A stretch of 51,296 nt of DNA from Shigella phage SFP17, in the sequence record MN432485. The stretch is one strand, 5' to 3'. Made by a program: the position numbers and the translations under genes. The notes beneath the pieces are model-generated. The model saw nothing but the letters and a program-made list of their open reading frames with translations, searched no databases and was not told where the DNA came from. Each line of letters starts with the position of its first letter. Position 1 is the stretch's first letter. This document shows, one piece after another, positions 388 to 51,265 of this stretch.

Positions 388-605
388 TCAAGGCTGAATA
401 TCGCTATAAGGTGACTCATTCGGCAACAAAAACCTTTAAGCCTGGCGATATAGTCAGGCCAATAAAGAAAACGATGGTTGGGTGGCTGATTGGTCTTTCT
501 TACCACAAATCACTTTATTTTGATTTTGCTGATTCCGTAACCGCGCATTGCTATAGCGCAAGGGAACCAGAAAAAATCTTAGTTAGCATAGAGCGGATCA
601 AATAG
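384..605 (+). CDS. hypothetical protein (73 aa)
   Basis: GTG start overlapping upstream stop (GTGA); weak GAGG upstream; no ATG alternative near. Confidence 0.35.
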   Translation: MIKAEYRYKVTHSATKTFKPGDIVRPIKKTMVGWLIGLSYHKSLYFDFADSVTAHCYSAREPEKILVSIERIK

Positions 606-645
606 CATTTTTTGTTAAATGCGGGTAGCATTGGTGCGGTATTAT
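601..645 (+). promoter_or_regulatory. conserved-motif promoter (AATAGCATTTTTTGTTAAAT + 22 nt + TATTAT)
   Basis: Member of 16-copy motif family at fixed spacing to a -10-like hexamer; upstream of 674-2257. Confidence 0.5.
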
Positions 646-673
646 TGCCGCATCAAAAAAGGAGTTATCATCA

Positions 674-2257
674 ATGAATTTTTCGTTTGAAACCAATAAA
701 CTAACACCAAAACAAATTATCGAATTAGCTGATGCACAAGGATTGTCTCCGGTGCGCGTGTCCATTCAGGCAAACGGATACCGTCAATCGTCCAGCTTTT
801 GGGGTGAGGTTAATGATGTTAATAACGGAAACGATCGCTACCCTATAATTTCTCTTGGCAATGATGTTGATGTTGTTGGTAAGTTGGCGCGCAACATTGC
901 TCGATCAGTTCAGTTCCCTGAATCATCGGCATATATGCATTTTATCGGCTGCGTGTCTGCTGCAATGCTTGGACGCTTCACTGTTGAGTATCACGGAACG
1001 GATCAACCAACCGCTCTGTACGTTGTTACAAGCCAGCCTCCTTCAACTGGTAAATCTGCCGTTAACAGCCTGGCACTTGCTCCTATGGTTGCTGAAGTGG
1101 AAAGAATTAATGATCAGCGAAAGAAGGAGCGAAAAAAGATACAAGCTAAGCTGGCAGGTCTTGCAAAAGAGATGAAAAGCGAGCGCTCCGGCGCTGACAT
1201 GGAATCTCTGTACCAGGAGAAAGAAGATCTGGAAGAAAAACTGGAAAAGATGTGTGACATCGTTTTCCCTGTGTCCGACACAACGCCGGAAGGACTTGCA
1301 AGAATCAACAATCGCCAGGGTAACTTTGCTGTGATTTCAGACGAGGCAACAAGTATTAACAGCCTTTTAGGTCTGACATATGCCAATAGCGAACGTAAAA
1401 CCAACAGCGAACTTGTGCTAAAAGCATGGGATCATGGTCATGTTTCTATAGCTCGTGCAAACGCTGACAACAATATGAGTTTTAAAGCTCTTGGCTGTAT
1501 GGCGGTAATTGCCCAGGATGAAACAATCAATGCCATCATGGATGCAGGATCGCGCGGTATCGGTGTAAGTGAGCGTTATTTGCTTGTGCGTGAGGAATCA
1601 TTTTTAGGTCGTCGAAAGTTTGTTGATGATAACGGTGATTCTACTTATGAACCTGTTGATGGAGAACTGAAAAGCCAATATTTCAAGCTGATCCATAACA
1701 TCATGAGTGAATCGAACATCCAGCTTAAGATCAGCAAATCAGCAATGAGAGTTCTTAACATGGCTCGTCAGGAGATGGAACCGCACCTTGCCGATGGCGG
1801 AAAGTATTCGCATACAATGCTGCGCGGTGCGCTTGGCAAAATGGATAAGCAGGTGATCAGGATTGCTTCGGTTTTGCACACTATCCGCAATTGGTTTAAT
1901 CCTGGCGGATACCCTCAAAAGTCGAAAGAGATTGAGGTTGAAACCGTTCAGGAAGCACTGCTGATGTTTAGCGAGTTGAGCAAAACATACATTAGCGCCG
2001 CCAACGCTTCTGGCTATGCTGGTGATGATGCTGAAATGGGTAAACTAATCGAGATTATCACTCGACACGGTAAGGCTAACAAGGGAATCTTGAATGTGCG
2101 CGCCATATATGAGGCTGCACGAAAAGTTAAGCCGTTTGTTGGTCAGGCTGGCGTAATGAAGCGTATGGAAACGCAACTGCTGCCGATGCTTGAAGAAAGA
2201 AATTATATTTGTGTGATTAATGGCGTTGTTTTCGTAAATCCAACATTGCTGGGGTAA
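674..2257 (+). CDS. P-loop NTPase of unknown function (527 aa)
   Basis: RBS AAAGGAG 7 nt upstream; Walker A-like SQPPSTGKS and Walker B-like FAVISDEAT in translation; motif promoter at 601-645. Confidence 0.75.
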   Translation: MNFSFETNKLTPKQIIELADAQGLSPVRVSIQANGYRQSSSFWGEVNDVNNGNDRYPIISLGNDVDVVGKLARNIARSVQFPESSAYMHFIGCVSAAMLGRFTVEYHGTDQPTALYVVTSQPPSTGKSAVNSLALAPMVAEVERINDQRKKERKKIQAKLAGLAKEMKSERSGADMESLYQEKEDLEEKLEKMCDIVFPVSDTTPEGLARINNRQGNFAVISDEATSINSLLGLTYANSERKTNSELVLKAWDHGHVSIARANADNNMSFKALGCMAVIAQDETINAIMDAGSRGIGVSERYLLVREESFLGRRKFVDDNGDSTYEPVDGELKSQYFKLIHNIMSESNIQLKISKSAMRVLNMARQEMEPHLADGGKYSHTMLRGALGKMDKQVIRIASVLHTIRNWFNPGGYPQKSKEIEVETVQEALLMFSELSKTYISAANASGYAGDDAEMGKLIEIITRHGKANKGILNVRAIYEAARKVKPFVGQAGVMKRMETQLLPMLEERNYICVINGVVFVNPTLLG

Positions 2258-2259
2258 TT

Positions 2260-2652
2260 ATGTTTCTTCTGGATCTGTATCGCTGGTGTGAGTCATTCGA
2301 ATGGTTTACACGTCAACATATCGCAAAATTTATATTTCAGCATAGAGAATGTGAGCGGCTCGCAAGGGCCGCAGGATTTACGCCGAGAATGTTTGCAACC
2401 GCCGTTTCAAAAGAGTTTTGCGCAAGAATGATGACCGCTGGTTATCTTGATGGAGTTGGTGGAAAGTTCTGGTGTAAGAAAGGGTCTGCAAATCGACCTT
2501 TCTCGTTTGAACTTTACAGTCTGGAAGGTATGCAAAACGAATGGGTAATGGATGTTTTAAGGATCGGAGAAATGAGCGATGAAGAATTGTTTACGTCAAA
2601 TGCTAATAGACAAAATATTGAAGTTCTGCGCCGTAAGTTCAATCTCACATGA
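2260..2652 (+). CDS. hypothetical protein (130 aa)
   Basis: ATG 2 nt after upstream stop; long ORF in operon context. Confidence 0.55.
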   Translation: MFLLDLYRWCESFEWFTRQHIAKFIFQHRECERLARAAGFTPRMFATAVSKEFCARMMTAGYLDGVGGKFWCKKGSANRPFSFELYSLEGMQNEWVMDVLRIGEMSDEELFTSNANRQNIEVLRRKFNLT

Positions 2653-2773
2653 CGATTTCATGCACGCAATGTTAACGCTCATTCATTCTGACATGCGAGC
2701 GTTTGATATATCAGAGCATAATTTGTGTGATGATGATGGCGTTTTATTGGTTACTGTAAAGCGTATTGAATAA
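2579..2773 (+). CDS. hypothetical protein (64 aa), overlaps upstream gene out of frame
   Basis: ATG with GGAGA 9 nt upstream; ends at terminator hairpin; overlap of 74 nt makes it uncertain. Confidence 0.35.
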   Translation: MKNCLRQMLIDKILKFCAVSSISHDDFMHAMLTLIHSDMRAFDISEHNLCDDDGVLLVTVKRIE

Positions 2774-2774
2774 C

Positions 2775-2802
2775 AAAGGAGGCGTTAAGCCTCCTTTTTG
2801 TT
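2775..2802 (+). terminator. intrinsic terminator (AAAGGAGG-loop-CCTCCTTT + T-run)
   Basis: 8-bp GC-containing stem followed by TTTTTGTTG; boundary between convergent blocks. Confidence 0.7.
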
Positions 2803-5661: not shown

Positions 5662-5693
5662 TTTTATTTCCTCATGTTTGTTTCGTTGAAATA

Positions 5694-5739
5694 ATTATGC
5701 CCGACACAAGGCCGGGCGTTTTAACAAAAAGTGCTATTT
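5694..5739 (-). promoter_or_regulatory. conserved-motif promoter (motif + 22 nt dyad spacer + CATAAT)
   Basis: AAATAGCACTTTTTGTTAAAAC then GCCCGG...CCGGGC then CATAAT; upstream of 5482-5661. Confidence 0.5.
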
Positions 5740-6679: not shown

Positions 6680-6713
6680 TTCTTAATTACCTGTTGCTTG
6701 TTGAACTGGTGTT

Positions 6714-6759
6714 ATTATGGCGCAATCCTTCGCGCCTGTTTTAACAAAAAGTGCTATTT
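6714..6759 (-). promoter_or_regulatory. conserved-motif promoter upstream of dam
   Basis: AAATAGCACTTTTTGTTAAAAC + 22 nt (GGCGCgaaggattGCGCC) + CATAAT. Confidence 0.5.
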
Positions 6760-9229: not shown

Positions 9230-9243
9230 TTGGCGTGTATAAT
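9216..9243 (+). promoter_or_regulatory. sigma70-like promoter for regulator/primase operon
   Basis: TTGAGT - 16 nt - TATAAT within palindrome GTGTATAATACAC; divergent from helicase promoter. Confidence 0.4.
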
Positions 9244-9282
9244 ACACAATCATTAAATCATCGTTTAACAAAAAATGCTATT
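9239..9282 (-). promoter_or_regulatory. conserved-motif promoter upstream of helicase
   Basis: AATAGCATTTTTTGTTAAACG + 21 nt + TATTAT; predicted start site almost coincides with ATG 9229. Confidence 0.45.
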
Positions 9283-9294
9283 GGAGAATGAATA

Positions 9295-9768
9295 ATGAAA
9301 GAACAGCGAATCGCAGTATCAACTGGTAAGATTGACAAACGCACAATCAATGGCAATAACGGAACTCGACGGGGTAAAGATAAGAAAAAGCGCAAGCGCC
9401 CTACAGGATACTATGTTTTAAAAGATGAAGTGCGCGCCGGACTAAAAGCACGGCTTGACATTCTTATTGAGTATTACGGCAGCGTGTCAGCAATGGCAAA
9501 GCGTCTTAACGTTAGCCAGCAAACTGTAAATCAGTGGCGCGTTCGCGGTATGATTTCAGCCGCTGGCGCTCAAAAGGTGCATAACGATTACAAAAAGTAT
9601 GGCTGTCAAGGCTATCGCGCTTCATTCTGCCGTCCAGATCTGCGATTTGATTCCAATGGAAAACCGCTCACAAAGAGATGTGATAAGCGTGAAATGTTGC
9701 GAGTGGTAAGAATGTCAGATTATGAGCCTGGCGGATTCCTGTATAAACCTGAAAGCACTAATTGCTAA
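9295..9768 (+). CDS. HTH DNA-binding protein (157 aa), putative replication/transcription regulator
   Basis: RBS GGAGA; HTH-like AMAKRLNVSQQTVNQWRVRG; basic N-terminus; directly upstream of primase. Confidence 0.65.
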   Translation: MKEQRIAVSTGKIDKRTINGNNGTRRGKDKKKRKRPTGYYVLKDEVRAGLKARLDILIEYYGSVSAMAKRLNVSQQTVNQWRVRGMISAAGAQKVHNDYKKYGCQGYRASFCRPDLRFDSNGKPLTKRCDKREMLRVVRMSDYEPGGFLYKPESTNC

Positions 9769-9775
9769 AAACAAT

Positions 9776-9813
9776 GCCTGGCATGATGTTATCATCTGTC
9801 AGGCTTTTTTGTT
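9776..9813 (+). terminator. hairpin + T-run (attenuator-like) between regulator and primase
   Basis: GCCTG...CAGGC stem with long loop followed by TTTTTTGTTT. Confidence 0.35.
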
Positions 9814-16498: not shown

Positions 16499-16545
16499 AT
16501 GCGGTGAATTATAACACCGCATTTTTCATTTGTTTAGCTATTTGT
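16499..16545 (-). promoter_or_regulatory. hairpin with TATAAT in loop plus shortened motif (AAATAGCTAAAC)
   Basis: ATGCGGTG-aattataa-CACCGCAT stem-loop; AAATAGCTAAAC 21 nt upstream of TATAAT on minus strand; upstream of 16191-16469. Confidence 0.3.
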
Positions 16546-16550
16546 GCTGT

Positions 16551-17612
16551 TTAAATAAGATATTGCTTAAACTGGCGTCGCACCCAATCAGGAGTATCAA
16601 GGCAAACCTCCGGCTCACCGTTTGAATACGAAGGCCAAACGTCATGTTGCTGGCACATGGCAAACTGGTTAATTACGCTCATGTACTGAATGCGCCCGAT
16701 CTTCAATTGCTCGCTATTCATGCGGAAAGCCAACGGCAAATAAGGCTCTTTATTCTCTTGCGCTAACAGTCGAACAACTATAGGTCGCTTTTCTTCTGGA
16801 TACGCTTTTCTGAATAAATCACATTGCAACGCCATTTTCAAATAATAGCCGTGATTGTAAGCCAGGCGCATAAACTCAACCGGATTCGCGCTCATTGTGG
16901 TTTTGTAGTCTGTGATCACAATGGCCTCTGGATAAATAATATCGCGGCAAATCGGATGACCTTTTTCATCGTAACCATCAATCAGCGTTGCGGTGACGTT
17001 CTTTGTTACGTCAACGTGATCGCATCGCACTTTGACTTTTACGCCGTTGATTTCACCGAACAACGATAATTCACGTTGTGCTGTCTTGCTATTCATACAT
17101 GCGTTATGTTCCGGTATTGATTCCAGAACCTGGCGCATTGCAACGCACGCATCGTAATCTTTAGATTCGATTAGCTGTACGCCGTCAGCCCTGGCCTGGC
17201 TTTCTGCGATCATCTCAATCAACCACATAACGTTAAGGTCTTCTCCGCAATCCACCATCATTTTGATAAGGTCTGGATAAGTCTTTCCTGTTGTACCTTT
17301 CAGGCCAAATGATTTCAGCTTTGCAGCAAGTGCCGTTTGGCTAGTTATCAGATCCTTAAAGTCTTCTGGCGCTGGCGCGCGTCGATAGGTTTTTTCGAAA
17401 AGCTCCTTGCTTTCAAAGTTGGTATGCGACTGCGTACCGAAAACTAGCGCCTTGCTCTTATCGTCACGCGGCTTGAACTTCCACGCTGCCGGGCATGTGC
17501 TGTAAATCTCTGCCAGGCTTGAACCGCTAACATAATCAGCCGTCCACGCTTCTGGATCGTGATAAAGCTCATTGCTCATTTCTTCGCTGGTGTACGCCAT
17601 AAACTTATTCAT
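16551..17612 (-). CDS. PD-(D/E)xK recombination exonuclease (353 aa)
   Basis: ITDYKTT catalytic-core motif; RBS GAGGG; first gene of the exo-erf-ssb module. Confidence 0.8.
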   Translation of the reverse strand: MNKFMAYTSEEMSNELYHDPEAWTADYVSGSSLAEIYSTCPAAWKFKPRDDKSKALVFGTQSHTNFESKELFEKTYRRAPAPEDFKDLITSQTALAAKLKSFGLKGTTGKTYPDLIKMMVDCGEDLNVMWLIEMIAESQARADGVQLIESKDYDACVAMRQVLESIPEHNACMNSKTAQRELSLFGEINGVKVKVRCDHVDVTKNVTATLIDGYDEKGHPICRDIIYPEAIVITDYKTTMSANPVEFMRLAYNHGYYLKMALQCDLFRKAYPEEKRPIVVRLLAQENKEPYLPLAFRMNSEQLKIGRIQYMSVINQFAMCQQHDVWPSYSNGEPEVCLDTPDWVRRQFKQYLI

Positions 17613-17940: not shown

Positions 17941-18039
17941 ATATATTTATCTGTATGTATTGCGCTCTATTGTTGCTCACATTTTGAGCTAAATTTAAGC
18001 CTCCGCAGATTTGAGAACGCAGGATAACAAAAAGAACAG

Positions 18040-18083
18040 GATAGCACTTTTTGCTAAACGCCCACCGCAAGATCGTGTATAGT
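18040..18083 (+). promoter_or_regulatory. conserved-motif promoter upstream of cor
   Basis: GATAGCACTTTTTGCTAAACG + 21 nt + TATAGT. Confidence 0.5.
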
Positions 18084-18114
18084 TGCAACCAACAACAACT
18101 AAGGAGACACCAAA

Positions 18115-22790: not shown

Positions 22791-22824
22791 GCTTTTTCAC
22801 CTTTTGTGCTATTTGATTTGTTGA

Positions 22825-28696: not shown

Positions 28697-28709
28697 TTCT
28701 TTCTCCTTG

Positions 28710-28729
28710 ATAGCACTTTTTGTTAAAAG
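28710..28729 (+). promoter_or_regulatory. conserved motif copy in reverse orientation relative to flanking tail genes
   Basis: ATAGCACTTTTTGTTAAAAG reads rightward, abutting the RBS of the minus-strand chaperone gene; poor -10 (TAGCAT) at the usual spacing. Confidence 0.35.
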
Positions 28730-28765
28730 AATTGATTATGAATCGTGTAGCATGATTGTACAGTA

Positions 28766-32423: not shown

Positions 32424-32469
32424 TTTCTTCCTCCATATATAAAGGTCGTTAGTATGTAACGGACCAATG

Positions 32470-32489
32470 ATAGCATTTTTTGTTAAACG
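32470..32489 (+). promoter_or_regulatory. conserved motif copy in reverse orientation relative to flanking capsid genes
   Basis: ATAGCATTTTTTGTTAAACG reads rightward between two minus-strand capsid genes; poor -10 (TATGGG). Confidence 0.35.
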
Positions 32490-32506
32490 TGCAACATAAT
32501 TTTGTG

Positions 32507-32941
32507 TTATGGGTCAATGCTTACCCCGACAATATATGAATCATTATCAACCTTTACATGTTCGCCAGTAAAGATCCAACCAATCAGCAAGTCGCCTTCA
32601 CTGTATGCCACATCTCCATCTTGCGTTACAAATACTTTATCTCCATATTCTGGCGCTTCGCTCTCAGAAGTTAAGCACCAAACATTACCTCGACTAACCA
32701 CATTAACTGGATCGCCCTCCTCATATATGCACGAGTCCGGCGGCCTTACTGCCACGCCAATAACGAGATCCCCATTAACACTTGCTATTTTGTATCCATT
32801 TGTTGTATGTGATAGTCGCACAATCTTACCTGGCTCAATAAATTCATCTCCGCACACGAAAGATCCGTTAATCACCATTATTGAAGAATCGACCATGCAC
32901 CCTGGCGACTCAGCGCCAACAATGACTGAATAATCACTCAT
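32507..32941 (-). CDS. capsid-associated (decoration-like) protein, paralog 2
   Basis: Shares G-V-W-L...AP..G...DG.V....G....WI.TG...K block with 32987-33499; RBS GGAG. Confidence 0.55.
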   Translation of the reverse strand: MSDYSVIVGAESPGCMVDSSIMVINGSFVCGDEFIEPGKIVRLSHTTNGYKIASVNGDLVIGVAVRPPDSCIYEEGDPVNVVSRGNVWCLTSESEAPEYGDKVFVTQDGDVAYSEGDLLIGWIFTGEHVKVDNDSYIVGVSIDP

Positions 32942-36710: not shown

Positions 36711-36740
36711 TTTGATTATATATTGGTTTGTCGATTCGTG

Positions 36741-38309
36741 CTATTTGTTCCGCAAACCTGCCAATTTTTTCATTCTTCCTACCGGATCATCTGCCATGTT
36801 CATTTCAATGTTAACAGCATCAATGATGTTATCAACAATATCATCATGAGGATGCGAATCATCGAATGTAAACGCCGCAACTTCAGCCAGTATCTCAGCC
36901 AGCATAGGGTGGGATTCTGGAAGTGCTACGCGTCCGGCGCGCATTACTGGCGCTGCGTCCATTGCACGAGTAACCTTGTCTTTATCGCGCTGAACGGGAT
37001 TGATCTTGATCATGATTTTTTTCGCTGCGCTCTGAATCAAGCCAGTGCCAGACGATTTATCTTCAACATGAATCCTTCTCAACGTTCCGCATTCTTTATT
37101 GCGCTTCCAGCACTGATTAACGAACGCAACAAAATTAGTCTCAAGGTCTGGCGCTTCCCATTTTCCGCGAACACCATCAATGAAGTAAACGCGATCTTTA
37201 TACATCCCCCAATAACAGATCACGGAGTAGTCGTTAAGCTCCCCTGTTTTCTGCGCGGTATCAACCGTGATAAATGTATATTCAAAGCGATCCGGTTTTG
37301 GTAGCGTGCATTTCTCGCTGCTTCCGTAATACCGAAACCACTCTGTTTTAAACACGTTGCCGCCAAGCGCAACAGGCTGTTGCTGATACTGACTAGCAAA
37401 CGTGTACGGATCAGCATTTCGAAGTGCAAGTAATTCCTCCGCGCTTTCCTTAGCAGGCCAGAATGAATAATGAGCAACACCATCAATCATTACTGGCTTA
37501 CTGGACAAAACATCGCGATCAAACTCAGGCTTTAACCAATCAGGAAGCGTTTCGCGATATTCCTTAGTAACGAGCGCCGGAATACTGACCACCTTAAACT
37601 GGATGCCGCCCATGCCGCCGTTTGTCATGAACCATGTTGAATCATTGACGTGTAGCCGTTGCTGGACCATTACGATTGGCGTGGTGTCCTTCATTCGACG
37701 TGATCGCACCGTGTTCTTTAGGCGCATGTGTCCGGCTTCGCGCTTCACCTTAGAAAGCATATCATCCGGCTTGTCTGGATCGTCAAGAACCAGCATACCA
37801 GTAAATCCATCATCCATGTAGCCGCCACGCAGACCAGTAACCTGACCACCGATAGAACGCGAGTTAACTTGCAATTTAACCTTGCCGCCATCGGTTACAA
37901 TCAAATCCTTTGCGCTCGCCTTTGCCAGCTTTCCAGGCCATAGCTCCTGCCATTCTGGAGAACCAATAATCTCTTTGATGCGGTTGCTATTCTGCTGGAC
38001 AAGGCCATCACTAAACGAAAGATTAAGATTTCGCACCTTCTTACTTTTCAATGACGCATAAGGTGACATGTGGATCGAGAATATCTCTGTTTTACCACTG
38101 CCTGGCGTTATGTTGAAAATTACATTCTGTGACTCGCCTTTGATGATTTTTTCAACTTCGCTACATAGGTAACTGAAATGCCAGTTTCCTAAGAATTTCT
38201 GACCTTGCAATAACTGAAACCAAATGCGGATCATCTTTTCGAATGAATATTCGCTCATTTCCTTAACGGCGCGTTTTTGCGCCGCTGTTAAGTCTTCCCA
38301 AATCAGCAT
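36741..38309 (-). CDS. terL: terminase large subunit
   Basis: Walker A-like TPGSGKTE, Walker B-like LVLDDPD, C-terminal acidic nuclease-like region; followed by portal. Confidence 0.85.
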   Translation of the reverse strand: MLIWEDLTAAQKRAVKEMSEYSFEKMIRIWFQLLQGQKFLGNWHFSYLCSEVEKIIKGESQNVIFNITPGSGKTEIFSIHMSPYASLKSKKVRNLNLSFSDGLVQQNSNRIKEIIGSPEWQELWPGKLAKASAKDLIVTDGGKVKLQVNSRSIGGQVTGLRGGYMDDGFTGMLVLDDPDKPDDMLSKVKREAGHMRLKNTVRSRRMKDTTPIVMVQQRLHVNDSTWFMTNGGMGGIQFKVVSIPALVTKEYRETLPDWLKPEFDRDVLSSKPVMIDGVAHYSFWPAKESAEELLALRNADPYTFASQYQQQPVALGGNVFKTEWFRYYGSSEKCTLPKPDRFEYTFITVDTAQKTGELNDYSVICYWGMYKDRVYFIDGVRGKWEAPDLETNFVAFVNQCWKRNKECGTLRRIHVEDKSSGTGLIQSAAKKIMIKINPVQRDKDKVTRAMDAAPVMRAGRVALPESHPMLAEILAEVAAFTFDDSHPHDDIVDNIIDAVNIEMNMADDPVGRMKKLAGLRNK

Positions 38310-38910: not shown

Positions 38911-39150
38911 TCAATACTTGTATTTTACTTTCTCTGGATTTGTTTTCATAGTGCTGTGAATCCTGCCACCGATTGATAAATAGTGACCGCGAACCTGCCA
39001 AACTTTCTGCTCTTCATCCCAAAACGCTAAAGCAAATTCACCCTTTTTTGACTTATAGCGAACGCCAACAGCCACCACGAAAGATACAGCAACAAAGCCG
39101 ATTAGAACACCAATGATTAAAGAAACCAAACCAATAATTACAGAACTCAT
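38911..39150 (-). CDS. small membrane protein (79 aa)
   Basis: N-terminal ~30 aa hydrophobic helix; RBS AAGGAAAA; terminator downstream. Confidence 0.5.
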   Translation of the reverse strand: MSSVIIGLVSLIIGVLIGFVAVSFVVAVGVRYKSKKGEFALAFWDEEQKVWQVRGHYLSIGGRIHSTMKTNPEKVKYKY

Positions 39151-39899: not shown

Positions 39900-40027
39900 T
39901 ACAGACCTCTACCCTTCCACAAGTTGTACATTTCGAAATAGTGCATTGCAGTTTCAGTGTCGCCGCGTTCTAATGCTTCCTCTTGCTTCTGTGCGCACCA
40001 CTGCGACGGTTTTATGTAGTTATCCAT
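39899..40027 (-). CDS. hypothetical small protein (42 aa, below ORF-track cutoff)
   Basis: ATG with RBS AGGTGA; stop overlaps next ATG (TAATG). Confidence 0.35.
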   Translation of the reverse strand: MDNYIKPSQWCAQKQEEALERGDTETAMHYFEMYNLWKGRGL

Positions 40028-40896: not shown

Positions 40897-40928
40897 TGCT
40901 CTTTCCTCTGTTTCGCTTCAATGAGGAC

Positions 40929-40973
40929 ACTTTAACAAATGCCCTCGCGGAAGTTTTAACAAAAAGTGCTATT
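40929..40973 (-). promoter_or_regulatory. conserved-motif promoter
   Basis: AATAGCACTTTTTGTTAAAAC + 22 nt + TAAAGT; upstream of 40639-40896. Confidence 0.5.
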
Positions 40974-41259
40974 AGCTCATGTAATAGATTTCATCGCGAA
41001 CAAAATCGTCAAAATCAGATTGCGTTAACGGTCGATCCTCTAATGCTGCCTGTTCAATCATTTCAACCAGGGCGCAATCCATATCAAGGTAATGCGCATC
41101 AAGATCATACCATGAAGCCATTTCACGCGCCCAGGATCGGCAATTCTTGAATCCGTAACGGCGGATACAGTTTGCTGTGTGAAATGAGTCATTCCAACCA
41201 CGCTCAAGCGCTGACTTTTCGAATGCGTTAATCAACATTTTACGATAGCTTTTAGCCAT
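40972..41259 (-). CDS. hypothetical protein (95 aa)
   Basis: Strong RBS AAGGAGGAAG. Confidence 0.6.
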   Translation of the reverse strand: MAKSYRKMLINAFEKSALERGWNDSFHTANCIRRYGFKNCRSWAREMASWYDLDAHYLDMDCALVEMIEQAALEDRPLTQSDFDDFVRDEIYYMS

Positions 41260-41838: not shown

Positions 41839-42243
41839 TTATTTCCCAGCATTTCGCGCAATCCCCTTGTACATGACGTAAAAATCATTACCAGGCTTTT
41901 TGAACTTGATCGCATTGCGCGCAAGTCGGCGCATACGTCGCGCATCGTATCGCGCTCGCTGAAATGGTGTTTTCATTGTCTTAACATGGCAGCCGCGATG
42001 ATCGCTGATTCGCTTAAGCTCAATCAAAACTCCTTGAGTTGCCACTACGCAATAATGATCAAAGCCAAGTCGTCGAGTAATGATATATCCATTCTTGATG
42101 CGTGGTCGGTTAAACTCTTTGAGCGATCCGATATAGCGATCTGAAGCCGTTACAATCTCACCTTTACGAATGCCGCATCGCTCATCATATACCCAGGTTA
42201 CAACAAATTTTGTGCCTACGCGGATTTTGTGAAGATCTAACAT
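41839..42243 (-). CDS. hypothetical basic protein (134 aa)
   Basis: ATG at 42243 with RBS GAGAGGA, downstream of the -10 of motif promoter 42274-42319; track start 42288 would lie upstream of that -10. Confidence 0.55.
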   Translation of the reverse strand: MLDLHKIRVGTKFVVTWVYDERCGIRKGEIVTASDRYIGSLKEFNRPRIKNGYIITRRLGFDHYCVVATQGVLIELKRISDHRGCHVKTMKTPFQRARYDARRMRRLARNAIKFKKPGNDFYVMYKGIARNAGK

Positions 42244-42273
42244 GTTCAAGTCCTCTCGTTGATTGGTGTTTAC

Positions 42274-42319
42274 ATTATAGCGAGGCATTGCGCCCCGCTT
42301 TTAGCAATTCGTGCTATTT
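42274..42319 (-). promoter_or_regulatory. conserved-motif promoter (GAATTG variant)
   Basis: AAATAGCACGAATTGCTAAAAG + 22 nt + TATAAT; upstream of 41839-42243. Confidence 0.5.
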
Positions 42320-43600: not shown

Positions 43601-43631
43601 GATGTTTTCCTTTTTCGTTGTCGATGGGCTT

Positions 43632-43677
43632 ACTATACCGCAAGCCCAACAATCTGTTTTTGCAAAAAGTGCTATTT
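43632..43677 (-). promoter_or_regulatory. conserved-motif promoter
   Basis: AAATAGCACTTTTTGCAAAAAC + 22 nt + TATAGT; upstream of 43301-43600. Confidence 0.5.
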
Positions 43678-44450: not shown

Positions 44451-44461
44451 TATCAAACCTA

Positions 44462-44900: not shown

Positions 44901-44930
44901 CGTTTTATATCCTTCGTTGAAAGTGAGGCC

Positions 44931-44975
44931 ATTATACCTGGCCCCACATTTGAGTTTTAACAATTCGTGCTATTT
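44931..44975 (-). promoter_or_regulatory. conserved-motif promoter (GAATTG variant)
   Basis: AAATAGCACGAATTGTTAAAAC + 21 nt + TATAAT; upstream of 44670-44900. Confidence 0.5.
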
Positions 44976-45879: not shown

Positions 45880-45934
45880 GGTGCTTTCTCCTGATTGGTT
45901 TAACTGGGCGACGCCGTGCCGCCCTATGTGATTT

Positions 45935-45980
45935 ATTATGCCTGGTTATCGTTTTTGAGTTTTGACAAAAAGTGCTATTT
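45935..45980 (-). promoter_or_regulatory. conserved-motif promoter
   Basis: AAATAGCACTTTTTGTCAAAAC + 22 nt + CATAAT; upstream of 44974-45879. Confidence 0.5.
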
Positions 45981-46164: not shown

Positions 46165-46179
46165 TTATTCACCTGCTAA

Positions 46180-46365: not shown

Positions 46366-46397
46366 TTTGTTTTCCTCAATCTCGTTTCGATGAGGCT

Positions 46398-46443
46398 ATT
46401 ATGCCAGGATTTGCACCTGGCGTTTTAACAAAAAGTGCTATTT
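46398..46443 (-). promoter_or_regulatory. conserved-motif promoter
   Basis: AAATAGCACTTTTTGTTAAAAC + 22 nt (CCAGGtgcaaatCCTGG) + CATAAT; upstream of 46180-46365. Confidence 0.5.
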
Positions 46444-47813: not shown

Positions 47814-47821
47814 CAGTCAGC

Positions 47822-47867
47822 AAATAGCACTTTTTGTTAAAACGTGCCTGACTGGATTCGGCATAAT
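47822..47867 (+). promoter_or_regulatory. conserved-motif promoter
   Basis: AAATAGCACTTTTTGTTAAAAC + 22 nt + CATAAT; upstream of 47906-48178. Confidence 0.5.
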
Positions 47868-47905
47868 GCACACATCGAAACGAGATACCATTCAGGAGAT
47901 AGCAA

Positions 47906-48178: not shown

Positions 48179-48420
48179 TTAATGAAGTGGATTTTGAACT
48201 TGCTGAGGCCCATGTAAGGGCCAAAAAGATGGGATTTCGGATCTTGACGCAAACAGTCGAGTTCCCGTCGATGCCGTTCGCATCATTCCATAAAGTGACG
48301 GTATTCAGTCGCAAACGCGAGTGTAATGCGCTAATACATGTTGGTGATGATAATCGCATGGCTAAATTCATTAACGAGTCCTGTGATGTTCTGAGGGCCG
48401 TTAAACACGATCAACAATGA
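48175..48420 (+). CDS. hypothetical protein (81 aa)
   Basis: ATGA overlap with upstream gene. Confidence 0.55.
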   Translation: MINEVDFELAEAHVRAKKMGFRILTQTVEFPSMPFASFHKVTVFSRKRECNALIHVGDDNRMAKFINESCDVLRAVKHDQQ

Positions 48421-48433
48421 AGGAGAAATAAAG

Positions 48434-48700
48434 ATGGCGCGAATCAATGCACCTATTCCAGTTAAGCGCAAAGCACGTTTGCTCAATAACGGATGTTACG
48501 CCCTGCGGCCTGCATTTAAGGATCGCACCTTTCCGGTTATCGTTAACGTATCTCACGTAAGCCGTAGCGGAAACCTGGTATTCGTTGAAGGCTCTGACCT
48601 GGCGGCGCTTGGATTCTATGGCGGCATATTCAATGAGCCGCTTGCATTTTGGGCCAAGCATCCATCAACCGGATTGCCAGAAATTGAACTTATCGACTAA
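48434..48700 (+). CDS. hypothetical protein (88 aa)
   Basis: RBS AAGGAGAA. Confidence 0.6.
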   Translation: MARINAPIPVKRKARLLNNGCYALRPAFKDRTFPVIVNVSHVSRSGNLVFVEGSDLAALGFYGGIFNEPLAFWAKHPSTGLPEIELID

Positions 48701-48744
48701 AAAGCACTTTTTGTTAAAACTCAATCCTGGCAATCCGATATATT
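48699..48744 (+). promoter_or_regulatory. conserved-motif promoter
   Basis: AAAAGCACTTTTTGTTAAAAC + 22 nt + TATATT; upstream of 48778-48930. Confidence 0.5.
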
Positions 48745-48777
48745 ACACACATCGACAACGAATGCGAGGATTTGAAA

Positions 48778-48930
48778 ATGGTTACTCTGATTACCTGGGA
48801 ACACGAAAACAGCCAGCCGGAAGTGCGCGAATTTGAAACTGTAGCGGCCTGCTACAACCTTGCGAAAAATGGCGGCTTCTATAAGGCGCAAATTGTTAAC
48901 GAATTTGGAGTTGTTGACTATGAGTTCTAA
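48778..48930 (+). CDS. hypothetical small protein (50 aa, below ORF-track cutoff)
   Basis: RBS GAGGA; downstream of motif promoter 48699-48744; stop overlaps next start. Confidence 0.45.
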   Translation: MVTLITWEHENSQPEVREFETVAACYNLAKNGGFYKAQIVNEFGVVDYEF

Positions 48931-49201
48931 GTTTTACAGTTATACCGATACCGTTGATTTTGATGGGATACAATTGCCCCTCCCTAACAACTACAGATAC
49001 ATAACTCGTGACCGTTTCGGTTTTATCCAGGGGTGGCGGAACAAACCAACACACACTGAGTTCGGTATGTCTGGAGGAGAAGAGTTGCCGATCACTTTTG
49101 GTCATCAAAGCGGTGAAAATCTTCCGGTTGTTGCGCGTAAGTATCGCAGACACAAGATTACAAGGCAGCTTATCTCTTTAACTGGATCTGTTGTTGAATA
49201 G
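48920..49201 (+). CDS. hypothetical protein (93 aa)
   Basis: ATG at 48920 with GGAG upstream; track ORF starts earlier at non-ATG. Confidence 0.55.
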   Translation: MSSKFYSYTDTVDFDGIQLPLPNNYRYITRDRFGFIQGWRNKPTHTEFGMSGGEELPITFGHQSGENLPVVARKYRRHKITRQLISLTGSVVE

Positions 49202-49241
49202 CACTTTTTGTTAAAACCGATGCGTCTCTGATTGGTATATT
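49197..49241 (+). promoter_or_regulatory. conserved-motif promoter
   Basis: AATAGCACTTTTTGTTAAAAC + 22 nt + TATATT; upstream of 49273-49467. Confidence 0.5.
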
Positions 49242-49272
49242 AAGCGCATCGACAACGAACGAGGATTTAAAA

Positions 49273-49467
49273 ATGGAAAATCAGGTTGACGTTAAAGTTG
49301 TACAGCGTGACACCACTCACGAGAAAGGAATCTTTAAGAAAGGCGCTATCATCACAATCGATCTTGATGATATGGTTGCGTATCACTCCGGCCTGACATG
49401 GAACGTTGTTAAACATGGCAATGATTTCAAACTGCGTGGATTCAATACTTTTATGGAGGTTGTGTAA
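49273..49467 (+). CDS. hypothetical protein (64 aa)
   Basis: RBS GAGGA; motif promoter upstream. Confidence 0.55.
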   Translation: MENQVDVKVVQRDTTHEKGIFKKGAIITIDLDDMVAYHSGLTWNVVKHGNDFKLRGFNTFMEVV

Positions 49468-49748
49468 TGGCATACAAAAACAGCGATTTTAAAAACTCAG
49501 CCGAAACAATCAAGACGCAACTCATTAAACAACGCGCTTATAGATTCTGGCTTGATTATCATGACCTAAGAAAAGAGATGGATAATCTTATCAAGACTGG
49601 TAACGCGTTCTGTTCTAACAGGACGGTTTGGCGCAATATGAATGCGCAGTACGGTTATGGAAAAATTCGTGTATTTGGTGAGGCTGTTGAAGCGTATGTA
49701 TTTAGCGCAACAAAAGCTGTGAGTTTTAATGTTGTTGGTATTAATTAG
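49467..49748 (+). CDS. hypothetical protein (93 aa)
   Basis: RBS GGAGG; start overlaps upstream stop. Confidence 0.55.
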   Translation: MAYKNSDFKNSAETIKTQLIKQRAYRFWLDYHDLRKEMDNLIKTGNAFCSNRTVWRNMNAQYGYGKIRVFGEAVEAYVFSATKAVSFNVVGIN

Positions 49749-49848
49749 ATGAAGCTAATAATATTCCATAATGCCTGGATGGTAGCTGTTGCAAATAATC
49801 ATTATGGCGGAGACGGCAAGCGAGCAAAGCGCCATAGCTATTTCAACT

Positions 49849-49892
49849 GATAGCACGAATTGCTAAACAATATTTCTCAAACCTGGTATAGT
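49849..49892 (+). promoter_or_regulatory. conserved-motif promoter (GAATTG variant)
   Basis: GATAGCACGAATTGCTAAAC + 21 nt + TATAGT; upstream of 49923-50150. Confidence 0.5.
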
Positions 49893-49922
49893 TATCACAC
49901 CAAATATAATGAGGATTGCATA

Positions 49923-50150
49923 ATGAAAGCTAAAGTTACTAACATCATGAACACTGTTGATGCACATCACCGCGTCGCCGTGAAAATGGATAAATCTTGT
50001 GGAATCAACCAGTTAACAATCACGAGTGGTAAAGGTGTGTTTGTTGTTGGCTCACATCCAGGTAGTAAAATCCGCAAATATACGCGCGAAGAATTGATTA
50101 AACTGCTGGAAGAAAACAGCATGTTTATTGAAAGCTGGAAGGCTGTATGA
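49923..50150 (+). CDS. hypothetical protein (75 aa)
   Basis: ATG at 49923 with RBS GAGGA downstream of motif promoter; terminator hairpin follows. Confidence 0.55.
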   Translation: MKAKVTNIMNTVDAHHRVAVKMDKSCGINQLTITSGKGVFVVGSHPGSKIRKYTREELIKLLEENSMFIESWKAV

Positions 50151-50159
50151 TTAATCAAT

Positions 50160-50183
50160 GGGAGGTTTCCGCCTCCCTTTAAA
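50160..50183 (+). terminator. intrinsic terminator
   Basis: GGGAGG-tttccg-CCTCCC followed by TTTAAAT. Confidence 0.5.
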
Positions 50184-50197
50184 TAAAGGTGATAATA

Positions 50198-50299
50198 ATG
50201 ATGAAATTTCTTGATATTTTATTTGTCGTGATGATTGGCCTTGTTGGTTTGCTTTGGCTTGAAATTCTTCTTACTGTTATTAAGGAGTTTATTAAATGA
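50198..50299 (+). CDS. hypothetical small hydrophobic peptide (33 aa, below ORF-track cutoff)
   Basis: RBS AAGGTGA; single predicted TM helix; stop overlaps next ATG. Confidence 0.3.
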   Translation: MMKFLDILFVVMIGLVGLLWLEILLTVIKEFIK

Positions 50300-50520
50300 G
50301 TCAAGACGGTTTTTTTGAGCGACTACAAAAAGCGGAAGATGCCGGACTGAATAAAGAGGCCGCGCTTGAAGTCGCATATAAAATCAGGACGCTTGATGAT
50401 GCGTTGGGTGAAATGGATATGGACCATGAATGCGGCGCTGCATTTGCAGATCCAACTATGATTGTTAATGATTGTGGTTGCAATTTTGATCCGAACTGTC
50501 CTAGATGCTTTCCGTTTTGA
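50296..50520 (+). CDS. hypothetical Cys-rich protein (74 aa)
   Basis: RBS AAGGAG; C-terminal CGCNFDPNCPRC suggests metal binding. Confidence 0.55.
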   Translation: MSQDGFFERLQKAEDAGLNKEAALEVAYKIRTLDDALGEMDMDHECGAAFADPTMIVNDCGCNFDPNCPRCFPF

Positions 50521-50529
50521 GGTGATGAA

Positions 50530-51225
50530 ATGTATAAAGGTTTAATATTCTCTTTGTTTGATGGATCTGGCAAAGCCGTTAAAGATTGGGCGGAGGCTGG
50601 ATATCAATGCATTTGCTTTAATGCTGATGATGCTGATCATGGTGATTACCAGTCAGTGCGGATAATTCACGATAACATTTATTACGTTAACGCGTGGATT
50701 GATGCTGATTTTATATATAAAGCGTGCCTTGAAACATGGGGTAAGCCTGATTTCATTATGGCATTTCCGCCTTGCACACAATTAGCAAATAGTGGATCTC
50801 GTCATTGGGCTAAAAAGCGCATGGAAAATCCTAACTTCCAATATGAAGCCGCCGACACTTGCAAAATTGCGGCGCATATCGCTGATTATTTCGGTGTTCC
50901 GTACATGATAGAGAATCCTGTAGGCAAGCTGTCAACGTTATGGCGCAAGCCTGATTATACGTTCCATCCGTGCGATTATGCTGGCTATCTTCCGGAAGAT
51001 GATAAGCATCCCGACTTCCCTGATATTATTCCGGCGCGGGATCGGTACTTTAAGAAAACATGCCTTTGGACTGGAAACGGATTTGTTATTCCTCCGCGCG
51101 CAACAATCCTTCCTAAAGAGGATGACAAGGATAATCCTGGTTGGGCCAAAACTGGCGGAAAATCATCTCGCCGCCCTACTCCGCGAGGTTTTGCTCGCGC
51201 CGTCTTTGAAGCTAACGCAAAATAG
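50530..51225 (+). CDS. putative DNA methyltransferase (C5-cytosine-like motifs)
   Basis: Motif I-like LFDGSG, motif IV-like FPPCTQ, motif VI-like IENPVGKL; RBS GAGGTGA; short (231 aa) so assignment is tentative. Confidence 0.55.
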   Translation: MYKGLIFSLFDGSGKAVKDWAEAGYQCICFNADDADHGDYQSVRIIHDNIYYVNAWIDADFIYKACLETWGKPDFIMAFPPCTQLANSGSRHWAKKRMENPNFQYEAADTCKIAAHIADYFGVPYMIENPVGKLSTLWRKPDYTFHPCDYAGYLPEDDKHPDFPDIIPARDRYFKKTCLWTGNGFVIPPRATILPKEDDKDNPGWAKTGGKSSRRPTPRGFARAVFEANAK

Positions 51226-51265
51226 CACTTTTTGTTAAAAGCCAGGTGTAAAAGCCTGGCATAAT
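51220..51265 (+). promoter_or_regulatory. conserved-motif promoter driving the gene at window position 1
   Basis: AAATAGCACTTTTTGTTAAAAG + 22 nt (GCCAGGtgtaaaaGCCTGGC) + CATAAT, then RBS AAAGGAGA at window end. Confidence 0.5.

Follow-up and report, generated by a model that had tools for sequence, protein, structure and literature searches.

The window, a 51,296-nt stretch of Shigella phage SFP17 (MN432485), is a T1-like (Drexlerviridae) coliphage genome whose gene junctions carry about 20 copies of a box, aaATAGCAC(TTT/GAA)TTG(T/C)TAAAAc, where fewer than one would be expected by chance. A search for AAATAGCACN6TTAAAAC with up to three mismatches returned 17 matches against 0.94 expected (100 shuffles, maximum 4). 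All 16 copies listed in the original prediction are present, offset by 1–2 nt at most, and four further copies plus two degenerate ones were found (Table 1). The box core measures 20 bp and the whole repeat element 21–22 bp; across the family its form is ATAGCAC(TTT/GAA/TAA)TTG(T/C)TAAAA(C). The sequence is asymmetric. In the alignment of cassettes G-47, C-46, A-45, C-44, and G-38 are invariant, A-48 and T-40 are nearly so, A-51/-52 is enriched, and positions -43, -42, -41, and -37 vary. The predicted element is real, although its prior publication as the "21-nt direct repeat" of T1-like phages had been overlooked: Kropinski and colleagues described the same repeat in TLS, T1, Rtp, and Rogue1 (PMC11447400, 2024). 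The window copies are members of that family; the TLS repeats DR1–DR18 have the same sequence (aaATAGCACnnnTTGnTAAAA) and share the TTT/GAA/AAA subtypes, the orientation with transcription, and an about equal distance to the start codon. For TLS, a stoperator, an enhancer site, or an UP element was proposed and the question left open, with no mention of a marbox, of a -10 at a fixed 18 nt, or of a hairpin (PMC11447400).

Table 1. Box copies in the window with their promoter elements and target genes ("added" marks copies beyond the 16 originally listed)
Feature	Coordinates	Strand	Box	Gap (nt)	-10	Predicted TSS	Target	Remarks
Cassette	600..652	+	600-621 (aaATAGCATTTTTTGTTAAATG)	18	TATTAT 640-645	A652	ORF 674-2257, 527 aa, helicase-like	
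Cassette	5687..5739	-	5739-5718	18	CATAAT from 5699	A5687	ORF 5661-5482	in-spacer hairpin
Cassette	6707..6759	-	6759-6738	18	CATAAT from 6719	A6707	Dam methyltransferase gene 6679-5978	
Cassette	9232..9283	-	9283-9262	17	TATTAT from 9244		helicase ORF 9205-7160	-10 overlaps the canonical-promoter -10 of divergent regulator gene 9295-9768, as palindrome GTGTATAATACAC
Cassette	9750..9802	+	9750-9771 (AAAGCACTAATTGCTAAAAA)	18	TATCAT 9790-9795		primase ORF 9824-10756	added; -10 in loop of terminator hairpin, then TTTTTTG
Cassette	16501..16552	-	16552-16531 (ACAGCACAAATAGCTAAACA)	17	TATAAT		ORF 16469-16191	added; 1 mismatch to marbox core
Cassette	18039..18090	+	18039-18060	17	TATAGT		ORF 18115-18342	
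Degenerate box	22793..22814	-	ATAGCACAAAAGGTGAAAAA					directly before ATG of J-like tail gene; SD AAGGTG in place of TTGTTA part; no promoter geometry
Box	28708..28760	+	28708-28729		TAGCAT (weak)			added; against late genes, toward bidirectional terminator; position kept in T1 (18831-)
Box	32468..32520	+	32468-32489		no good -10			added; against late genes, 47 nt upstream of major head gene start (32423); position kept in T1 (15067-) and TLS (15023-)
Degenerate box	36725..36746	-	ATAGCACGAATCGACAAACC					junction of large-terminase/portal genes, then terminator; no promoter geometry
Cassette	40922..40974	-	40974-40953	18	TAAAGT		ORF 40896-40639	-10 inside hairpin, arms on both sides of -10
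Cassette (GAA variant)	42267..42319	-	42319-42298	18	TATAAT		ORF about 42243-41839	
Cassette	43625..43677	-	43677-43656	18	TATAGT		ORF 43600-43301	-10 within hairpin GGGCTT/AAGCCC
Cassette (GAA variant)	44924..44975	-	44975-44954	17	TATAAT		ORF 44900-44670	
Cassette	45928..45980	-	45980-45959 (GTCAAAAC, as in micF)	18	CATAAT		ORF 45879-44974	
Cassette	46391..46443	-	46443-46422	18	CATAAT		ORF 46365-46180 (DUF7421)	in-spacer hairpin GCCAGG/CCTGGC
Cassette	47822..47874	+	47822-47843	18	CATAAT		ORF 47906-48178	first of rightward early arm
Cassette	48699..48751	+	48699-48720	18	TATATT		ORF 48778-48930 (DUF7170)	
Cassette	49196..49248	+	49196-49217	18	TATATT		ORF 49273-49467 (Pfam Gp54)	-10 within hairpin GATGCG/CGCATC
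Cassette (GAA variant)	49848..49899	+	49848-49869	17	TATAGT		ORF 49923-50150	
Cassette	51220..51272	+	51220-51241	18	CATAAT	A51272	probably ORF starting at position 1	SD extends to window end

How is the box placed relative to the genes around it? Each copy forms the upstream half of a compact gene-junction cassette of roughly 75–85 bp, which reads: preceding ORF's stop codon (in many cases within the box), 20-bp box, 18-nt spacer, a sigma70 -10 preceded by G-14, 6 nt, the predicted start A, ATCGAAACGA, SD, and ATG. In 13 of the 20 copies the upstream ORF stops inside the box or on its 5' border, through the TAG of ATAGCAC or a TAA there, bearing out the predicted stop-codon overlap. From the 3' end of the box to the -10 hexamer there are 18 nt in 15 window copies and 17 nt in 5; the 21–22 nt originally given applies when counting from the end of TTGTTA, not from the element's 3' end. 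Across five Drexlerviridae genomes 72 of 82 boxes have a good -10, at a gap of 18 nt in 62 cassettes and 17 nt in 8, with single cases of 19 and 21 nt; good hexamers at random positions, used as a control, were evenly distributed over gaps of 14–22. The predicted start site, with C-3, C-1, and A+1 (54/62 cassettes), and the conserved leader ATCGAAACGA come at a constant distance of 7 nt from the hexamer; we infer that the cassettes start transcription there. G-14 occurs in 52/62 cassettes, and A-11 and T-7 are invariant. The last cassette probably drives the ORF at window position 1, since its SD extends to the window end; the genome would then be circularly permuted.

On this numbering the element spans about -52 to -31, as had been proposed, with its center at about -40.5/-41.5, overlapping the -35 position. 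Of the six positions in the -35 window itself (AAAACN), only two agree with TTGACA; TTGNTA is 22–23 bp and TTAAAA 19 bp from the -10. The description as a nonstandard sigma70 promoter with an element at the class II activator position therefore holds for sequence and geometry. Orientation toward the downstream gene, originally claimed for every copy, applies to 18 of 20, the exceptions being the late-region copies at 28708 and 32468. T4-like phages (Straboviridae) that infect Klebsiella and Enterobacter carry complete cassettes as well, which argues that the cassettes are independent of T1-specific proteins.

The dyad symmetry noted earlier in the spacers is likewise real: the region from -30 to +1 has a mean MFE of -9.1 kcal/mol vs. 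-3.9 in shuffles (z = -22), and covariation backs a sense-strand RNA hairpin within the core promoters (spacer plus discriminator). Transcripts started at a cassette lack the 5' arm, and the hairpin is thus confined to read-through transcripts from upstream; judged from the sequence, its role would most likely be to end the upstream message or stabilize its 3' end.

What kind of protein might bind the box? By its sequence the 20-bp core is a consensus marbox (soxbox/robbox), in forward orientation over the -35 position. In the window, 19 sites agree with the marbox gcannwwntgnnaaa (PMC12052159) at each of its 10 defined positions, and full matches number 20 in T1, 19 in TLS, 13 in Rtp, and 11 in Klebsiella phage KP36 (shuffles, 0.2–0.5). 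Against the 20-bp consensus AYNGCACNNWNNRYYAAAYN (PMC2064960) the sites have zero to two mismatches, and the agreement extends to positions that the search pattern did not force (A1, Y2, C7, Y14, and Y15). The box positions that vary among copies are N/W/Y positions of the marbox consensus; at position 19 the phage boxes depart from the consensus Y with an A, as does micF. The chance of a 10/10 marbox fit by the family consensus, correctly oriented and in register, is on the order of 1e-5. We found this match in no literature searchable for this analysis. Of the earlier suggestion of a class II or phage-specific promoter, the class II part stands at the sequence level, while the host site had been missed; given the match, a phage-specific activator is less likely than one from the host (Rob, MarA, or SoxS).

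The resemblance extends to promoter layout. In Escherichia coli K-12 micF, the archetype of class II Mar/Sox/Rob promoters (others are fumC, nfo, lpxC P2, lpxL P1, and rfaY P1), exactly 18 nt separate the box ACAGCACTGAATGTCAAAAC from the downstream TAGAAT; in our own scan the gap was 17 nt long in fumC and 18 nt long in nfo. With the hexamer set at -12 to -7, the G and A of the phage GCAC land at -47 and -45, the bases contacted by Rob in the micF cryo-EM complex (PMC9178005), and the micF soxbox is centered at -41.5 (PMC9638938). Salmonella class II sites cluster near -41 in forward orientation with no -35, hexamer matches there averaging 1.9 (PMC10268841). Phage and E. coli promoters thus share an asymmetric 20-bp box with GCAC and (Y)AAA 7 bp apart, placed forward over the -35, no usable -35, a sigma70-type -10, and the 18-nt gap (measured in micF). 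They differ in that the phage boxes are perfect consensus sites, near-identical to one another, whereas the host sites are degenerate, and in that the phage carries ~20 boxes per 51 kb within a larger cassette with stop codon, core-promoter hairpin, and conserved leader; its activator dependence is putative.

We consider it reasonably probable that the box promoters are of class II, with host Rob, MarA, or SoxS as their activator. A single monomer of this AraC/XylS-type host protein—constitutive Rob, MarA or SoxS under stress, or RamA in Klebsiella—would bind the box through two HTH motifs, one on GCAC at -47 to -44 and the other on TAAA at -36 to -33. It would replace sigma70 region 4 at the -35, touch region 4 and the alpha-CTD, and bring host RNA polymerase to the -10, a mode of recruitment established for E. 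coli micF. Several points run contrary to this reading. MarA and SoxS are scarce without stress, and T1-like phages grow rapidly in ordinary cultures. Under standard growth, most Rob sits in inactive clusters (PMC10268841). The box copies are also more uniform than a marbox demands, which might stem from the specificity of a different protein or from cassettes that spread recently. Weighing against it too are the A at position 19, the canonical sigma70 promoters of two early genes, the boxes outside promoter geometry, the two copies directed against the late genes, and the chance that G-14 with a good -10 allows some factor-free transcription.

Could the phage supply the binding protein itself? 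No AraC-like protein was detected in the phage by tblastn with MarA, SoxS, and Rob (best E 1.1) or by a profile of the three (best E 0.45), nor did Pfam scans of 20 window ORFs find a family member; a look for an AraC-like fold was likewise negative. Neither HTH protein originally put forward is AraC-like: the product of 9295–9768 is Cro/YdaS-like and has one HTH, while 4036–5154 (given before as 4036–5151) has a weak HTH_28 match alone. A non-AraC-like phage protein acting on the box as class II activator or co-sigma factor, with the marbox likeness as convergence or mimicry of the host site, is in our judgment unlikely. Candidates would be the DUF7174 protein, the Cro-like regulator, or a small early ORF product, about 40 small ORFs having no known function. 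The first early gene, that of the DUF7174 protein, follows a near-consensus sigma70 promoter (TTGACA-17-AATAAT at 47233–47205; 11/12), and the Cro-like regulator gene follows a canonical one (TTGAGT-16-TATAAT); either product could be an unrecognized activator. TLS has only three canonical promoters (PMC11447400), which fits a cascade from an immediate-early factor to box promoters, and conservation extends past the marbox consensus (A-48, T-40, and A-51/-52). However, the rightward early arm opens directly with the box promoter at 47822, with no canonical promoter ahead; cassettes of this kind occur in T4-like phages, which have no T1-type early genes; and the small probability of a 10/10 marbox match weighs against convergence. 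Because the box is asymmetric, a dimeric Cro-type binder is a poor fit, single-HTH Cro-type proteins usually binding palindromes.

Distinctly improbable is a factor-free promoter, in which A/T-rich parts of the box serve as UP element, TTAAAA as a weak -35 spaced 19 bp from the -10, or both, and G-14 and the -10 supply the remaining strength. UP elements and the strong T5/T4 early promoters provide a parallel, with a further element, at about -40 to -55, that raises the activity of host RNA polymerase. UP elements are among the TLS authors' options (PMC11447400). The conservation of G-14, A-11, and T-7 is consistent with this reading, G-14 plus a good -10 might allow some factor-free transcription, and a consensus scan picks up one cassette as TTAAAA-18-TATAAT. 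But UP elements are A/T tracts without G/C invariants, recognized via the minor groove, whereas the box has its invariant GCAC and G; its TTGNTA and TTAAAA are misplaced for a -35, and sigma70-like sites are fewer in the window than in shuffles (18 vs. 26.3). We give very little weight to a box that is chiefly nonpromoter, whether it serves as a roadblock or binds a repressor, as the "stoperators" of mycobacteriophage L5 do, an idea raised for TLS (PMC11447400), or is a recombination site for cassette shuffling. Copies do occupy the gene junctions of a small-ORF region that varies strongly, entire cassettes have been transferred to unrelated phages, and some boxes (22793, 36725, and T1 8362) lie outside promoter geometry. 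Yet fixed 18-nt spacing and a conserved start site are unexpected for roadblocks, the family is virulent with a Cro-like gene as sole repressor-like gene, and shuffling, which may well occur but as a by-product, leaves base-specific conservation across four subfamilies unexplained.

Two T4 systems offer further comparisons. PeSL (promoter-early stem-loop) cassettes of T4-type phages, reportedly described by Arbiol et al. in 2010, are said to be repeated early promoter and stem-loop modules that sit on either side of small ORFs within variable early regions and probably help gene shuffling. The phage cassettes are likewise short repeated promoter and stem-loop modules, but differ in sequence and in a hairpin that overlaps the core promoter; no activator box accompanies the PeSL promoters, which are of the ordinary T4 early sigma70 type. 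T4 middle promoters work by "sigma appropriation," which requires two phage proteins, AsiA and MotA, the latter on a 9-bp box centered near -30. As in the scheme proposed here, an activator on a box substitutes for the -35 contact of sigma70 while the -10 is kept; the box of the T1-like phages, however, is 20 bp long and centered near -41, and no MotA/AsiA-type proteins are evident.

Overall, the match to the marbox and its position suggest that Rob, MarA, or SoxS turns on the early and DNA-metabolism genes of the phage. If this is true, most of these genes would be transcribed by unmodified host polymerase together with a host stress regulator.

How often does the repeated element, hereafter the box, occur in the window, and how is it placed relative to genes? 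The pattern AAATAGCACN6TTAAAAC, allowing up to three mismatches, occurs 17 times, against 0.94 expected and a maximum of 4 in 100 shuffles. All 16 copies listed in the original prediction are present (16/16), and a looser scan added four further copies and two degenerate ones. The −10 hexamer had been placed 21–22 nt after the element, a distance that is correct when measured from TTGTTA but not from the element's last base, from which the gap is 18 nt in 15/20 copies and 17 nt in 5/20. Orientation toward the downstream gene, claimed for every listed copy, holds for 18/20; the two exceptions, 28708 and 32468, are among the added copies. Overlap with upstream stop codons was borne out: in 13/20 copies, an upstream ORF stops at the TAG/TAA within the box or at the box's 5′ edge. 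The dyad symmetry of the spacer was likewise confirmed (folding of −30 to +1 is far below that of shuffles). We refer to the whole unit (upstream stop codon, box, spacer, −10, predicted start, leader, SD, and ATG) as the cassette.

Long stretches of the window share 92–96% identity with Escherichia phages vojen, egaa, aaroes, and JakobBernoulli and with Shigella phage pSf-1, which identifies it as a T1-like siphophage of the family Drexlerviridae. A cassette at 51220 and its SD reach the last bases of the window and an ORF starts at position 1; thus, the window is probably a complete, circularly permuted genome. The 2024 TLS re-annotation reports a direct repeat of 21 nt, aaATAGCACnnnTTGnTAAAA, that occurs 21 times, in subtypes TTT, GAA, and AAA, following the direction of transcription ∼76 nt ahead of start codons; it states that T1, Rtp, and Rogue1 have similar repeats, finds just three canonical sigma70 promoters in phage TLS and neither a polymerase nor a sigma gene, and offers three candidate roles for the repeat—stoperator, enhancer-binding site, and UP element (PMC11447400). 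The window box has the consensus aaATAGCACnnnTTGnTAAAA, intergenic location, orientation, and distance of this T1-like family, with ∼74–85 nt from box start to ATG in most copies. Because the TLS sequences DR1-18 are identical to window copies, the repeat itself is already known, and what would be new is the reading proposed for it.

What might the box mean? MarA, SoxS, and Rob—monomeric AraC/XylS activators—have the consensus site AYNGCACNNWNNRYYAAAYN (PMC2064960), given in shorter form as gcannwwntgnnaaa (PMC12052159); in Escherichia coli this site is called the marbox (soxbox, robbox). Nineteen window sites match 10/10 defined positions of gcannwwntgnnaaa, with 0–2 mismatches to AYNGCACNNWNNRYYAAAYN. 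The copies ATAGCACTTTTTGTTAAAAC and ATAGCACGAATTGTTAAAAC match all defined positions of the shorter form and all of AYNGCACNNWNNRYYAAAYN except position 19, an exception common to micF, the archetype class II promoter, which also has A there. Variation among phage copies falls exactly on positions that the consensus leaves as N, W, or Y.

Promoters of this regulon carry the box either reversed and upstream of the −35 (class I) or forward and over the −35 (class II) (PMC12052159, PMC10268841). In every cassette with a −10, GCAC is distal and AAA proximal to the hexamer, as in micF, and the box lies at −50..−31 relative to predicted start sites, over the −35. The phage sequence at the −35 position, AAAACN, has 2/6 matches to the −35 hexamer and is accompanied by a sigma70-type −10; a canonical −35/−10 scan picks up only 1 cassette. 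The E. coli K-12 micF promoter sequence consists of the box ACAGCACTGAATGTCAAAAC, then 18 nt, then TAGAAT, equal to the phage cassettes in orientation and gap and identical at 15/20 bases to the GAA variant, a subtype named for the three variable bases after GCAC. The cryo-EM structure of Rob-RNAP on micF shows Rob reading G-47 and A-45 within the A site, GCAC, contacting sigma70 region 4 and the alpha-CTD, and holding region 4 away from the −35, which the B site CAAA overlaps (PMC9178005). With the hexamer set at −12..−7, phage GCAC falls on the micF coordinates read by Rob. The micF soxbox is centered at −41.5 (PMC9638938); Salmonella forward sites cluster at ∼−41, and class II −35 hexamer matches average 1.9 (PMC10268841). 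Our own scan, with start sites assumed, gave putative gaps of 17 nt for fumC and 18 nt for nfo. Judged by its sequence and spacing, the repeat is a marbox in class II geometry. In the literature searched, we found no paper that reads it as one, although the T1 (2004) and Rtp (2006) genome papers may contain such a remark. Nor did that literature yield a paper on the fixed 18-nt link to the −10, the read-through hairpin described below, or the cassette in T4-like phages. The proposed mechanism is thus of a known kind in a new setting, with a distinctive cassette around the box.

The same anatomy was followed across the window, T1, TLS, Rtp, and Klebsiella phage KP36, the last four of which represent four subfamilies or genera. 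Zero-mismatch 15-nt marbox cores number 19 in the window, 20 in T1, 19 in TLS, 13 in Rtp, and 11 in KP36, compared with 0.2–0.5 in shuffles. In these five genomes, a good −10 is found at 72/82 sites, and the gap from box to −10 is 18 nt in 62/72, 17 nt in 8/72, 19 nt in 1/72, and 21 nt in 1/72; at random positions, good hexamers are evenly distributed over gaps of 14–22. Across the 62 cassettes whose gap is 18 nt, a base profile shows G-47, C-46, A-45, T-40, T-39, G-38, and A-35..-33 to be invariant and A-50, T-49, A-48, C-44 (59/62), and T-36 nearly so, leaving −43, −42, −41, and −37 as the sole varying box positions. Outside the box, A-11 and T-7 are invariant, G-14 occurs in 52/62, and C-3, C-1, and A+1 (54/62) are conserved, followed by a leader, A-T-C-G-A-A-A-C, and then the SD. 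Because a pyrimidine-A lies 7 nt past the hexamer and the onset of conservation is exactly there, the profile argues that the cassettes are real promoters with the predicted start sites. The +1 to +10 sequence AUCGA(C)AACGA (e.g., 46391-46382 and 47874-47883) is common to all four Drexlerviridae groups and the T4-like copies, and it may act in promoter escape, translation, or RNA stability.

Coordinates of box copies, predicted start sites, and cassettes in T4-like phages
Feature	Genome (host)	Position	Strand
Predicted start sites	Window	652, 9802, 18090, 47874, 48751, 49248, 49899, 51272	+
Predicted start sites	Window	5687, 6707, 9232, 16501, 40922, 42267, 43625, 44924, 45928, 46391	−
Extra copy (looser scan)	Window	9750	+
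Extra copy (looser scan)	Window	16531	−
Extra copy (looser scan)	Window	28708	+
Extra copy (looser scan)	Window	32468	+
Degenerate copy (looser scan)	Window	22793	−
Degenerate copy (looser scan)	Window	36725	−
Complete cassette	Snake_ER16 (Klebsiella)	20364	
Complete cassette	EBPL (Enterobacter)	3375	
Complete cassette	phiKp_23 (Klebsiella)	3637	
Variant, terminator hairpin between box and −10	Snake_ER16 (Klebsiella)	20009	
Variant, terminator hairpin between box and −10	EBPL (Enterobacter)	3003	
Variant, terminator hairpin between box and −10	phiKp_23 (Klebsiella)	3005	

Could the box instead serve a factor-independent promoter or have no promoter role at all? UP elements are A/T-rich tracts at −40..−60 without a base-specific need for G/C; here G-47, C-46, A-45, and G-38 never vary and C-44 rarely does, and a factor-independent, UP-like promoter is accordingly improbable. 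A role other than in a promoter is less credible still, and we consider it very improbable. L5-type stoperators are asymmetric repressor sites that block elongation inside transcription units and have no fixed promoter link; the box is tied at 18 nt to a −10 and start site. Sigma54 promoters (TGGCAC-N5-TTGC) lack a −10 hexamer and have their GG and GC doublets, at −24/−12, spaced by exactly 10 bp; in the box, AG replaces GG, GCAC and TTG are 2 bp too close, and a conserved −10 stands at a set distance downstream. N4-type promoters contain a DNA hairpin, centered near −12, that is read by the phage virion RNA polymerase; the hairpin found here is specific to sense RNA and includes G-U pairs. 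Pfam scans of 20 ORFs found no RNA polymerase or sigma gene, and none is reported for the family (PMC11447400). By-eye comparison with the IHF, Fis, and CRP consensus sequences gave no convincing match, and TTGTTA or TTAAAA as a −35 would leave spacers of 22–23 bp and 19 bp, for a weak contribution at most. A canonical −35/−10 scan of 39000-51296 found 18 sigma70-like sites vs. 26.3 in shuffled sequence, and neither Rfam families (at gathering threshold) nor tRNA genes were found in the whole window.

Which protein, then, binds the box? It is reasonably likely, on the sequence match and geometry, that the cassettes are class II marbox promoters to which host Rob, or MarA/SoxS under stress (RamA in Klebsiella), would recruit sigma70-RNAP. 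Binding by a phage-encoded protein is the main rival, and an unlikely one. Three points weigh against the host-activator model: Rob is mostly in inactive clusters under standard conditions (PMC10268841), conservation exceeds the marbox consensus at A-48, T-40, and A-51/-52, and an unrecognized activator could be the product of either of two early genes that have canonical promoters. Among canonical sigma70 promoters of the early region, the best (TTGACA-17-AATAAT, 47233-47205, minus strand, 11/12 match) drives the first leftward gene, 47168-46701, which is probably immediate-early; its product, DUF7174, is conserved in the family, and a model of it (pLDDT 77) has no AraC-like or other HTH fold match. 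The Cro/YdaS-like regulator at 9295-9768 contains one HTH, and a separate canonical promoter precedes its gene. No AraC-family protein was found in the phage by tblastn with MarA, SoxS, and the Rob N-terminal domain (best E 1.1) or with a three-protein MarA/SoxS/Rob profile (best E 0.45), both from approximate query sequences, and the family is absent from Pfam results on 20 ORFs. Moreover, the rightward early arm opens directly with the box promoter at 47822, which would thus have to run on host supply or on a product of the other arm.

Early regions of T4-like Straboviridae from Klebsiella and Enterobacter contain complete cassettes as well (box, 18 nt, −10, and ATCGAAACGA leader), and because these carriers are without T1-type early genes, a host factor is favored. 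In the variant form, the gap (29 nt, measured at EBPL 3003) is one helical turn beyond 18. Named hosts of matching records are all Enterobacterales except for a few T1-like records labeled as Campylobacter or Streptococcus phage. Two box carriers deposited as Campylobacter and Streptococcus phages, MG065663.1 and OR786094.1, belong to Drexlerviridae Tempevirinae (OR786094.1 to Tlsvirus), and MG065663.1 is flagged UNVERIFIED. Their host labels are doubtful, and given this taxonomy and flag we set such records aside as counter-evidence.

The core promoter also encodes an RNA hairpin. Folding of the 31 nt between −30 and +1 gives a mean of −9.1 kcal/mol, vs. −3.9 with spacer and discriminator shuffled (z = −22) and −5.4 kcal/mol when the spacer is paired with the remainder of another cassette (z = −15). 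The arms lie on either side of the −10, with the 3′ arm in the discriminator, in 32/62 cassettes; in 23/62 the hairpin is wholly in the spacer, and the A/U-rich −10 then resembles a terminator tail. Three spacers of this kind are annotated as rho-independent terminators in the T1 record (38973..39001, 39998..40024, and 41980..42007). Within a seven-member subfamily, all cells are paired, with two-sided changes at 5/9 pairs, and slid controls are 38–50% paired. Because the sense strand out-folds the antisense in 54/62 cassettes (−9.1 vs. −6.4 kcal/mol, P = 1e-9) and G-U accounts for 58/453 predicted pairs, these folds indicate that the hairpin is selected in sense RNA and not in DNA or antisense RNA. 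Cassette-initiated transcripts are without the 5′ arm; therefore, the hairpin would form only in read-through RNA from upstream, where it would probably terminate the upstream message or protect that message's 3′ end. This is seen best at 9750-9815: a true terminator with a trailing T run carries the −10 in its loop, and its 3′ arm ends at the predicted start. That the hairpin ends exactly at +1 does not hold generally, as longer folds give ends from −1 to +6.

Some loci depart from this pattern. Boxes at 28708-28760 (+) and 32468-32520 (+) are opposed to the late genes and have a weak −10 or none. These late-region boxes, after the major tail gene and before the major head gene, keep their positions in T1 (18831-, 15067-) and TLS (15023-), and they could drive short antisense RNAs or regulate late genes; the idea that they create an extended −10 (TGCTATCAT) on the opposite strand for the major head gene was rejected, as this feature is not conserved in T1. 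A box-like sequence at 22793-22814 (−) lies directly ahead of the ATG of a 1141-aa J-like tail gene, downstream of TATAAT, with the SD AAGGTG in place of TTGTTA; TLS DR8 is likewise, and the geometry is not promoter-like. At 9222-9295, the palindrome GTGTATAATACAC constitutes the overlapping −10s of a divergent promoter pair—the helicase gene's box promoter (−) and the canonical TTGAGT-16-TATAAT of the Cro-like regulator gene (+)—which should be mutually exclusive, and an imperfect inverted repeat in the spacer, ATGCCATTTGGCGT, may be the regulator's operator. Between the divergent early arms, 47268-47821 is ∼550 nt of non-coding, A/T-rich sequence with ATATA/CACCA-type direct repeats and several inverted repeats. 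This stretch may represent an origin, or else a packaging or terminal region.

Since the T1 genome paper (2004), it has been a question how phages of this type, which have hardly any canonical promoters and encode neither a polymerase nor a sigma factor, are transcribed; the class II marbox reading makes that question experimentally simple. We suggest tentatively, as a real possibility, that the Drexlerviridae, a virulent family of enterobacterial phages, wire most of their early and DNA-metabolism transcription to the host MarA/SoxS/Rob regulon of stress and antibiotic resistance via consensus-strength marboxes. If so, phage development would be tied to the bile, oxidative, or antibiotic stress met in the gut, and phage and host resistance regulon would be rivals for the activators. 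T1-type phages are notorious laboratory and industrial contaminants, and under this reading a host lacking rob, marA, and soxS would partly resist such contamination. MarA/SoxS/Rob control efflux, porins, and TolC (the TLS receptor); thus, susceptibility to antibiotics, bile, and phage would be linked. As a promoter, the cassette is compact, portable, and probably inducible, and the read-through-only hairpin inside it is, as proposed, a neat insulating device. Stop codon, read-through hairpin, marbox promoter, and leader would together form a mobile unit exchanged even with T4-like phages, and the family would offer a clear case of lytic phages depending on a host stress regulon for their main promoters.
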